Origin: Escherichia coli | Lineage (GTDB): Bacteria; Pseudomonadota; Gammaproteobacteria; Enterobacterales; Enterobacteriaceae | Direction: 5' to 3' (one strand) | Assembly: GCF_003334405.1 (NCBI RefSeq) | Contig: NZ_QOWM01000071.1 | DNA: 281 nt | Part shown: positions 1 to 281 of the stretch, piece by piece | How the letters are laid out: every line of letters begins with the position of its first letter | Numbering within the stretch: position 1 is the stretch's first letter | Notes under the pieces: model-generated | What the model saw: the letters and a program-made list of their open reading frames with translations, nothing else | Database searches by the model: none | Told to the model about the DNA's origin: nothing | Position numbers and translations under genes: made by a program

Positions 1-75
1 GGTCGTTAGCTCAGTTGGTAGAGCAGTTGACTTTTAATCAATTGGTCGCAGGTTCGAATCCTGCACGACCCACCA
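1..75 (+). tRNA. lysT: tRNA-Lys (anticodon UUU), 5'-partial (tRNA position 1 lies just outside the window), genomically encoded CCA at 73-75
   Basis: Sequence matches the E. coli tRNA-Lys gene as I recall it. Cloverleaf verified by hand: acceptor 1-6 pairs with 65-70; D-stem 9-12 GCTC with 21-24 GAGC; anticodon stem 26-30 with 38-42; anticodon loop 31-37 CTTTTAA with anticodon TTT at 33-35; T-stem 48-52 GCAGG with 60-64 CCTGC; T-loop TTCGAAT; discriminator A72; CCA 73-75. E. coli has several identical tRNA-Lys genes; lysT is chosen because a 135-bp spacer to a downstream tRNA-Val fits my recollection of the lysT-valT junction. Not verified by search. Confidence 0.96.
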
Positions 76-114
76 ATCGCTAAGGTGGAAGCGGTAGTAA
101 AACGTGAAGGATAA

Positions 115-130
115 CGTTGCATGAGCAACG
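115..130 (+). other. Predicted RNA hairpin in the spacer transcript: 6-bp perfect stem CGTTGC/GCAACG with 4-nt loop ATGA
   Basis: Inverted repeat read directly from the sequence: 115-120 CGTTGC pairs with 125-130 GCAACG, loop 121-124. The only ATG in the spacer (121-123) sits in the loop. Folding in vivo is not established. Confidence 0.5.
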
Positions 131-141
131 GCCCGAAGGGC
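131..141 (+). other. Predicted short GC hairpin: GCCC-GAA-GGGC (4-bp stem, GAA triloop), directly abutting the 115-130 hairpin
   Basis: 131-134 GCCC is complementary to 138-141 GGGC. The stem is short and the loop tight, so stability is uncertain. No U-tract follows, so it is not an intrinsic terminator. Confidence 0.35.
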
Positions 142-157
142 GAGACGAAGTCGAGTC

Positions 158-175
158 ATCCTGCACGACCCACCA
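158..175 (+). repeat. Perfect 18-nt direct repeat of the tRNA-Lys 3' terminus (copy of 58-75: ATCCTGCACGACCCACCA), offset exactly 100 bp
   Basis: Direct comparison: 58-75 and 158-175 are identical. Identity stops at 57/157 (A vs C) and at 76/176 (A vs C). The copy covers the last 2 nt of the T-loop, the T-stem 3' strand, the acceptor 3' strand, the discriminator and CCA. No complementary 5' acceptor or T-stem strand lies nearby, so it is a fragment and not a folded tRNA. Confidence 0.9.
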
Positions 176-190
176 CTAACATAGTTAGTT

Positions 191-210
191 GTAGTATCCA
201 GCGTAGTATC
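191..210 (+). repeat. Two copies of GTAGTATC (191-198 and 203-210) separated by CAGC; the second copy ends at the base immediately 5' of tRNA-Val
   Basis: Exact 8-nt direct repeat read from the sequence. A third GTAGTA hexamer occurs at 94-99, and TAGT also occurs at 182-185 and 186-189. This is an A/U-rich 5' leader of the downstream tRNA. Confidence 0.6.
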
Positions 211-281
211 GGGTGATTAGCTCAGCTGGGAGAGCACCTCCCTTACAAGGAGGGGGTCGGCGGTTCGATCCCGTCATCACC
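211..281 (+). tRNA. valT: tRNA-Val (anticodon UAC), 3'-partial (ends at tRNA position 71; last acceptor base, discriminator and CCA are outside the window)
   Basis: Sequence matches the E. coli tRNA-Val(UAC) gene as I recall it. Cloverleaf verified: acceptor 5' strand 211-217 GGGTGAT with its partner ATCACC at 276-281; D-stem 220-223 GCTC with 232-235 GAGC; anticodon stem 237-241 CCTCC with 249-253 GGAGG; anticodon loop CTTACAA with anticodon TAC at 244-246; T-stem 259-263 GGCGG with 271-275 CCGTC (one G-U pair); T-loop TTCGATC. Paralog assignment (valT rather than valZ or the valU-operon copies) rests only on context and spacer length. Confidence 0.95.

Follow-up and report, generated by a model that had tools for sequence, protein, structure and literature searches.

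Results

Organization of the lysT-valT locus

The stretch of DNA analyzed here (281 nt, referred to as the window) is found with 100% identity in E. coli K-12 (NZ_CP032667.1, 3100746-3101026, minus strand). It includes lysT minus its first base (1-75), the 135-nt lysT-valT spacer (76-210), and most of valT (211-281). The features, all on the plus strand of the window, are the following.

1-75, plus strand: tRNA-Lys(UUU) gene lysT without its first G (Rfam tRNA, 71.1 bits; RefSeq annotation at 1500-1575 of the K-12 operon, L001, corresponding to window 0-75)
58-75, plus strand: copy 1 of an 18-nt direct repeat, the true tRNA-Lys 3' end (ATCCTGCACGACCCACCA); the copies are 100% identical with a spacing of 100
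76-175, plus strand: 100-nt RtT-like unit, made of a post-CCA trailer module (76-100), then the RtT core, then a pseudo 3' end
within 76-175, plus strand: RtT core, hairpin AACGTTGC/GCAACG (114-131) plus GCCCGAAGGGC
94-99, plus strand: GTAGTA copy 1, within the trailer module ATCGCTAAGGTGGAAGCGGTAGTAA
158-175, plus strand: copy 2 of the 18-nt repeat, a pseudo tRNA-Lys 3' end closing the RtT-like unit
176-188, plus strand: small hairpin (inverted repeat) CUAAC-AUA-GUUAG, extendable to A175/U189
191-198, plus strand: GTAGTATC, copy 2; bases 191-193 are variable and the remaining five start the conserved block
194-210, plus strand: leader block GTATCCAGCG[T/C]AGTATC (-17 to -1 of valT), with invariant CCAGC at 198-202; predicted single-stranded
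203-210, plus strand: GTAGTATC, copy 3, ending at -1 of tRNA-Val; polymorphic in E. coli at -1, -5, and -7
211-281, plus strand: tRNA-Val(UAC) gene valT, 3'-truncated by 5 nt (ARAGORN 211-283, anticodon tac)

The identification of valT was supported by the Rfam tRNA model (56.9 bits) and by the RefSeq tRNA-Val at L001 1711-1786. ARAGORN, Rfam, and RefSeq all placed the start of tRNA-Val at 211, and the conserved block, which ends at 210, directly abuts +1. The initial annotation of this DNA had described a recurrent GTAGTA/TAGT motif in the 5' leader of tRNA-Val. The region is indeed the leader of valT, and every position given for the motif was reproduced: GTAGTATC lies at 191-198 and 203-210, with the second octamer ending at -1 of the tRNA, GTAGTA at 94-99, 191-196, and 203-208, and TAGT at 182-185 and 186-189.

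The seven genes of the lysT operon form one transcript (Agrawal, Mohanty & Kushner 2014, PMC4176162). Northern blots detected a single species of more than 1100 nt with probes from both ends of the cluster, which had formerly been divided into four transcription units by EcoCyc, as quoted in the same article (PMC4176162). Processing of this transcript needs RNase P, as seen on Northern blots, and proceeds in the 3' to 5' direction; RNase E plays "a very minimal role" while RNase P is present, and its cleavage upstream of valT was seen solely when RNase P was inactive (PMC4176162). The search of the window for sigma-70 promoter-like sites (-35/-10 hexamers with a 16-18 nt spacing) found none on either strand, which is consistent with the published single transcript. 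Both the locus and the pathway that processes its transcript have been studied in detail, and the finding as originally written adds little to them. As tRNA leaders go, this one is ordinary; what is mildly new is an unusually conserved 17-nt block within it.

In every genus examined, tRNA-Lys was always located 2-4 nt (CC, CTC, CTTC, or TCC) after tRNA-Val (gaps at L001 1787-1788 and 2090-2092, L002 1250-1253, and L004-L048). This constant gap indicates that the Val-Lys pair is a conserved dicistronic module, whatever its surroundings.

Statistics and origin of the repeated motif

The motif was compared with its expectation in shuffled sequences. GTAGTA was observed three times versus 0.21 expected (1 of 200 dinucleotide shuffles), and GTAGTATC twice versus 0.02 expected (0 of 200). 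A family-wise test is fairer because the motif was picked after looking at the sequence. In 5000 dinucleotide shuffles of the 135-nt spacer, the probability of any hexamer occurring at least three times was p=0.024 and that of any octamer occurring at least twice was p=0.087; for any octamer found twice within the 35-nt leader alone, p=0.074 was obtained. The proposal that three hexamers exceed what chance would produce was therefore upheld only in part: the repeat is real, but the excess is modest once the post hoc choice is corrected (p about 0.02 and 0.09). Conservation, described below, is stronger evidence than the repeat statistics.

The three GTAGTA copies are not equivalent. In E. albertii, the 5' half of the long-type Lys-to-Val spacers aligned with the trailer module that contains copy 1 (18 of 23 positions, p=0.0125). 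This module also aligned with the GGTGGAAGTAGT segment of the valZ leader, at a level that was not significant (p=0.06). In both the E. albertii long spacers and the valZ leader, the segment resembling copy 1 sits directly 5' of the conserved block. These alignments suggest that the three copies are parts of a compact, ancestral-type spacer that was split in K-12 by the RtT-like unit and the hairpin. At the corresponding place in the paralogous lysZ-lysQ spacer the hexamer reads GGTAGAGAA, so the copy-1 hexamer is not kept there.

The seven bases GCGGTAG at window positions 91-97 coincide with the core of the RfaH ops element (GGCGGTAGnnTG), without the flanking G and TG. This likeness is probably due to chance.

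The RtT-like unit is present or absent as a whole

The Rfam RtT model (RF00391) matched positions 7-175 with 58.8 bits, above its gathering score of 45. The match takes in the hairpin AACGUUGC/GCAACG, the GCCCGAAGGGC stretch, and the pseudo 3' end at 158-175. The leader segment 181-210 lies outside it, and the motif is consequently not part of an RtT element. Five RtT matches were found in the K-12 operon (L001 1507-1675, 1796-1962, 2100-2266, 2322-2489, and 2629-2754), of which just the terminal one is annotated in RefSeq ("RtT sRNA, processed from tyrT transcript"). At the four internal matches, the 5' half of the model covers the body of the tRNA-Lys gene that comes before.

When positions 76-175, which the two 18-mers bound, were removed, the window matched E. 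coli Nissle 1917 base for base. The RtT-like unit is likewise missing from O157:H7 and several other strains, in which the 35-nt leader comes immediately after tRNA-Lys. The exact match of Nissle 1917 to the deleted window shows that the "100-bp unit" is an RtT-like presence/absence element rather than a degenerate, motif-bearing duplication. The initial annotation had suggested a duplicated unit of about 100 bp with the motif at a similar distance from each copy of the 18-mer, and neither part of this suggestion was borne out: the repeat spans 18 nt only, the alignment of 76-110 with 176-210 was not better than expected (p=0.14), and copies 1 and 2 of GTAGTA are 97 nt apart, not 100. RtT-like units are precise presence/absence polymorphisms among E. 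coli strains, a property that matters for the use of these spacers as markers and for studies of RtT RNA.

At least 80% of the full window was covered in 4268 of 5426 complete genomes, and the segment 158-245 was covered in 5345. O157:H7 also lacks the lysW-valZ unit, having a 51-nt spacer in its place. On the minus strand, a terminator scan flagged 115-130 (CGTTGCTCATGCAACG followed by TTATCCTT); this is the hairpin of the RtT core read backwards and not the terminator of any annotated gene.

Hairpin and other RNA structures

The hairpin at 176-188 has undergone compensatory changes. Among 19 orthologues, 95.8% of the cells of the stem are paired, and in one stem pair A-U was replaced on both sides in three instances (by G-C twice and by C-G once). 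The covariation score was matched in only 1 of 500 shuffles. The two TAGT copies at 182-189, which had been counted with the repeat family, are instead accounted for by the 3' arm of this hairpin. The structure is missing from the short, 26-nt leader type, and it ends 22 nt upstream of the cleavage site.

Other potential pairings were noticed. The tract GGUGG(A/G) in post-CCA trailers (window 84-89, and L001 1972-1990 in the valZ leader) complements CCACC at the tRNA 3' end and, imperfectly, also UCCAGC in the block. In the minimum-free-energy fold of the K-12 spacer, 79-89 is paired with 197-207; in many genomes that trailer is missing, so the pairing cannot be a general one. In the lysZ-type tRNA-Lys, the leader UUUCAGG is complementary to the trailer CCUGAA (L001 2280-2314 and 2391-2400), and in four genera the palindrome CUUCGAAG takes both lysZ-flanking sides (L007, L044, L047, and L048). 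The covariation of these flanks suggests a conserved processing stem enclosing that tRNA.

A conserved 17-nt block precedes tRNA-Val

A total of 100,044 species genomes were scanned for a tRNA-Lys 3' end, 25-55 free bases, and a tRNA-Val 5' end. The query left the free bases unconstrained, admitted only spacers of 25-55 nt, and gave 46 loci. Conservation was scored on right-anchored, ungapped leaders. In the 43 distinct leaders, which came from 15 named genera, the last 17 nt were near-invariant (G T A T C C A G C G Y A G T A T C), and CCAGC was present in 43 of 43. The genera, all of them Enterobacteriaceae, were Escherichia, Salmonella, Citrobacter, Klebsiella, Kluyvera, Enterobacter, Kosakonia, Pluralibacter, Phytobacter, Yokenella, Siccibacter, Franconibacter, Superficieibacter, Pseudocitrobacter, and Pseudenterobacter. 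The short, 26-nt leader type occurs in roughly half of the genera. The leaders of Shimwellia and Edwardsiella were unrelated to the block.

Positions -17 to -1 had a mean of 1.78 bits per site, compared with 0.73 bits for positions -25 to -18, which are rich in insertions and deletions. The tRNA-Lys leaders of the same operons reached about 1.0 bit per site, although they also abut invariant tRNA genes. In the profile, G was present at -20 in 88% of the leaders, T at -19 in 44%, and A at -18 in 81%; position -7 was T or C. The block was kept whether the upstream element was a real tRNA-Lys gene or an RtT pseudo 3' end. In two lineages a different hairpin replaces the first AGTATC and leaves CCAGCGTAGTATC. 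On the evidence of these aligned leaders, the conserved unit is best taken as GTATCCAGCGYAGTATC with its invariant CCAGC core, and not as the hexamer GTAGTA. The expectation that the motif would be shared by orthologous leaders was thus correct for the 3' 17 nt, which are kept in the 15 named genera, and incorrect for GTAGTA/GTAGTATC, which is not a conserved unit.

Within E. coli, sampled strains carried GTAATATC, GTAGTATT, or GAAGTATC in place of the second octamer. The differences from K-12 were located at -1 (C>T), -5 (G>A, in O157:H7), and -7 (T>A), and each of them disrupts the octamer; part of the block consequently tolerates change. In window coordinates, the leader polymorphisms were 181 A>C in the hairpin loop (4 of the 8 non-K-12-type genomes sampled), 204 T>A, 206 G>A in O157:H7, and 210 C>T in O114:H49, O111:H2, and others. 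Over 158-245, 3286 of 5429 records were 95-99% identical to K-12.

When isolated spacers were folded, the mean unpaired probability of the block was 0.70 (53 leaders). The leader near the cleavage site is predicted to be unstructured, and UAUC (-4 to -1) is unable to pair with A73-C74-C75. By direct count, 181-210 is 63% A+U, while the block GUAUCCAGCGUAGUAUC is 53% A+U and has no UU.

An RNAduplex scan of the K-12 operon transcript found no partner of the block better than those of shuffled blocks (shuffled mean, -15.2 kcal/mol). The best duplex partners, GCUAUCUGCGAUACUC after the lysQ terminator (-15.3 kcal/mol) and GCUGGG in the tRNA-Val D-loop (-13.1 kcal/mol), were rejected. Pairing of leader and trailer across the Val-Lys pair was also rejected: the trailers of the downstream tRNA-Lys are of several unrelated types from genus to genus while the block is constant. 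A coding explanation was discarded since the variable positions -19 and -7 follow no codon period. A relic of a tRNA 3' half, an ops-like element, and Chi were weighed from the sequence and found too weak. No Rfam family matched the block.

In metagenomes, the 17-mer followed by tRNA-Val occurred at least 25 times among the 120 stretches listed. At least 102 other occurrences (96 metagenomic and 6 viral, among the matches listed) were in unrelated, mostly coding-looking sequence. By a rough estimate of collection size, the number of occurrences without tRNA-Val is about what chance gives.

Paralogous tRNA-Val leaders

The other tRNA-Val leaders of E. coli were compared with that of valT. The valZ leader is nearly identical to it and ends with TTGTAGTATCCAGCGcAGTATC. 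The tRNA-Val genes of the valU operon (valU, valX, and valY) are identical in sequence, but their leaders differ. valU has a 9-nt primary leader without the motif; the valY leader GAAGTACCGAAGT had no significant similarity to the valT leader (p=0.72); and valX has a degenerate version, TGTAGTCTCCGCCGTGTAGCA, displaced 14 nt upstream, with a similarity that is suggestive (p=0.017). The presence of the motif in paralogous leaders, which the initial annotation had raised as a point to check, was therefore confirmed for valZ, where it is nearly unchanged, but not for valU and valY, which lack it, or for valX. This distribution indicates that the motif is not a general tRNA-Val determinant. RNase P processes the transcripts of valU, valX, and valY in the absence of the block (PMC4176162).

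Discussion

A proposed open leader for RNase P

The explanation that we favor, to which we assign about an even chance, is that the block is a constrained, unstructured RNase P leader, and that the 17 nt next to the tRNA (GUAUCCAGCGYAGUAUC) are the functional unit. This reading was adopted because the block is predicted to be unpaired, cannot pair with ACCA, and has no partner in the operon transcript better than those of shuffled blocks, and because the nearest hairpin is 22 nt upstream. Selection on the block would presumably act through RNase P processing or through pre-tRNA folding.

The block would serve as a structure-free 5' leader that presents the cleavage site of valT, and that of valZ, to RNase P. 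The enzyme would cut between C210 and G211, and the upstream tRNA-Lys would then be released with the spacer as a 3' trailer to be trimmed by exonucleases. The AGUAUC...AGUAUC repeat, with its period of 12, may be explained most simply as an old tandem duplication that became fixed in a constrained leader. The hairpin at 176-188 and the RtT-like unit at 76-175 would be optional, lineage-variable additions between the tRNA-Lys CCA and the leader. Copy 1 of the hexamer (94-99) would come from a different trailer module, which the RtT-like insertion parted from the block.

RNase P, together with its C5 protein, is not known to contact more than about the first 8 nt of a leader. That RNase P would be involved in removing this one had been anticipated in the initial annotation, and it is in fact the enzyme that processes this transcript (PMC4176162). 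The sequence of a leader has only few-fold effects on the kcat/Km of RNase P, and the enzyme is slowed far more when the leader is structured close to the cleavage site or pairs with RCCA (PMC10731613). These effects of leader structure fit selection for an open leader. A contact of about 8 nt and few-fold effects mean, on the other hand, that recognition by RNase P alone does not account for invariance as far as -16. A further point against this explanation is that the block ends in a conserved U(-2)C(-1), whereas A(-2)U(-1) is the optimal cleavage-site context (PMC10731613). The processing of valU, valX, and valY without the block and the E. coli polymorphisms at -1, -5, and -7 also speak against it.

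A possible binding site for a partner

An unlikely alternative is that the block is the binding site of a trans partner, which could be a protein or small RNA acting on the precursor, or a target of the excised spacer acting in trans. The 17 nt are far more tightly kept than neighboring spacers and extend beyond the reach of RNase P, they are predicted to be single-stranded and hence accessible, and they include two AGUAUC half-sites 12 nt apart. A spacer that acts in trans would also be of an established kind, according to Lalaouna et al. (2015). Against it, the duplex scan of the operon gave nothing better than shuffled blocks, and the search of Rfam returned no match to the block. In the literature searched, no trans role was described for lysT, valT, or valZ in connection with sRNAs, Hfq, or sponges, and papers on RtT and tyrT gave no relevant function for this spacer. 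Hfq-dependent RNAs use a terminator hairpin and a U-tail. The released spacer would have neither.

A more specific form of this idea, equally doubtful, is that 13-17 nt of UAUCCAGCGYAGUAUC, with the CCAGC core and the two AGUAUC half-sites, constitute a putative recognition element for a dedicated factor. The factor, whether protein or RNA, could be one that sets the order of Val-Lys maturation or gates it, or else a trans partner of the excised spacer. If the recognition element were real, the block would be specific to the lysT-type operon of Enterobacteriaceae and not a generic RNase P leader. Should the constraint reflect a specific interaction, it would provide a handle on the fixed 3'-to-5' order of RNase P processing; otherwise the block is merely a well-preserved leader.

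Neutral history, RNase E, and DNA-level signals as alternatives

The possibility that the block has no function, being a neutral relic of tandem duplications and of the modular history of the operon that diverges slowly beside an invariant tRNA gene, also appears unlikely. The operon is visibly made of duplicated modules, as seen in its five RtT-like units, in the near-identical valT and valZ leaders, and in the precise insertion/deletion of 100-bp units through recombination between repeats. The corrected repeat statistics are weak, and the block is polymorphic at three positions within E. coli. However, a neutral relic is difficult to reconcile with a block that is near-invariant across 15 genera while the adjacent 5' sequence and the tRNA-Lys leaders are much more variable and rich in insertions and deletions. 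Concerted evolution within a genome cannot keep a sequence constant between genera.

It is quite improbable that the GUAGUA repeats direct recognition or cleavage by RNase E, parting tRNA-Lys from tRNA-Val before RNase P trims the leader. RNase E is able to cut somewhere upstream of valT and valZ (PMC4176162), and segment 181-210 has the A+U content given above and is mostly unpaired. The initial annotation had reasoned from this context that the leader fits the cleavage preference of RNase E. This was contradicted by the composition of the block, which at 53% A+U and with no UU does not fit that preference, and by the backup role of the enzyme: RNase E is dispensable for the lysT operon when RNase P is active (PMC4176162). 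The hexamer GTAGTA itself is not conserved. The RNase E consensus is reportedly RN↓WUU, in work attributed to Chao et al. in 2017. It is approached only at AG↓UUA and AG↓UUG (183-190), in the variable part of the leader and partly within the hairpin.

Direct-repeat sites of response regulators typically have a spacing of 10-11 bp, and G201, C210, and G211 fit the minimal consensus for transcription pausing. A DNA-level signal, that is, an internal promoter, a pause site (G-10/Y-1/G+1 at C210/G211), or a direct repeat that binds a protein, nevertheless seems highly unlikely: it could draw on the AGTATC repeat with its 12-bp period and on the four transcription units once proposed in EcoCyc (as quoted in PMC4176162), but that period is not typical of response-regulator sites, the pause consensus is of very low information, no sigma-70-like promoter was found on either strand of the window, and Northern blots detected one transcript of more than 1100 nt (PMC4176162).

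Comparison with known systems

The open RNase P leader that we favor can be compared with several characterized elements. With the RtT family (RF00391, the tyrT repeats) the locus shares the unit at 76-175, which likewise ends with a copy of the 3' end of the upstream tRNA. The motif studied here (181-210) differs in that it is outside the RtT match and is present with or without the RtT-like unit. With RNase E sites in tRNA precursors it shares a single-stranded, moderately A/U-rich context, and the block differs from them in having no UU. The 3'ETS-leuZ sponge of glyW-cysT-leuZ and the spacers of metZ-metW-metV, as presented by Lalaouna et al. (2015), are similar in that a conserved single-stranded stretch is released during processing; no complementary small RNA, Hfq-type features, or experimental indication were found in the present case, and the likeness is one of kind only.

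The closest relatives are the polycistronic precursors processed by RNase P (the valV-valW, valU, and lysT operons; PMC4176162), which comprise the same locus and the same arrangement, a spacer between co-transcribed tRNAs. Removal of the spacer by RNase P, with RNase E as backup only, is common to those precursors and to the spacer described here. That study describes neither sequence conservation nor a motif in the valT and valZ leaders (PMC4176162). The present block differs from leaders of that type in that it reaches beyond the known contacts of RNase P and ends in the non-optimal U(-2)C(-1).
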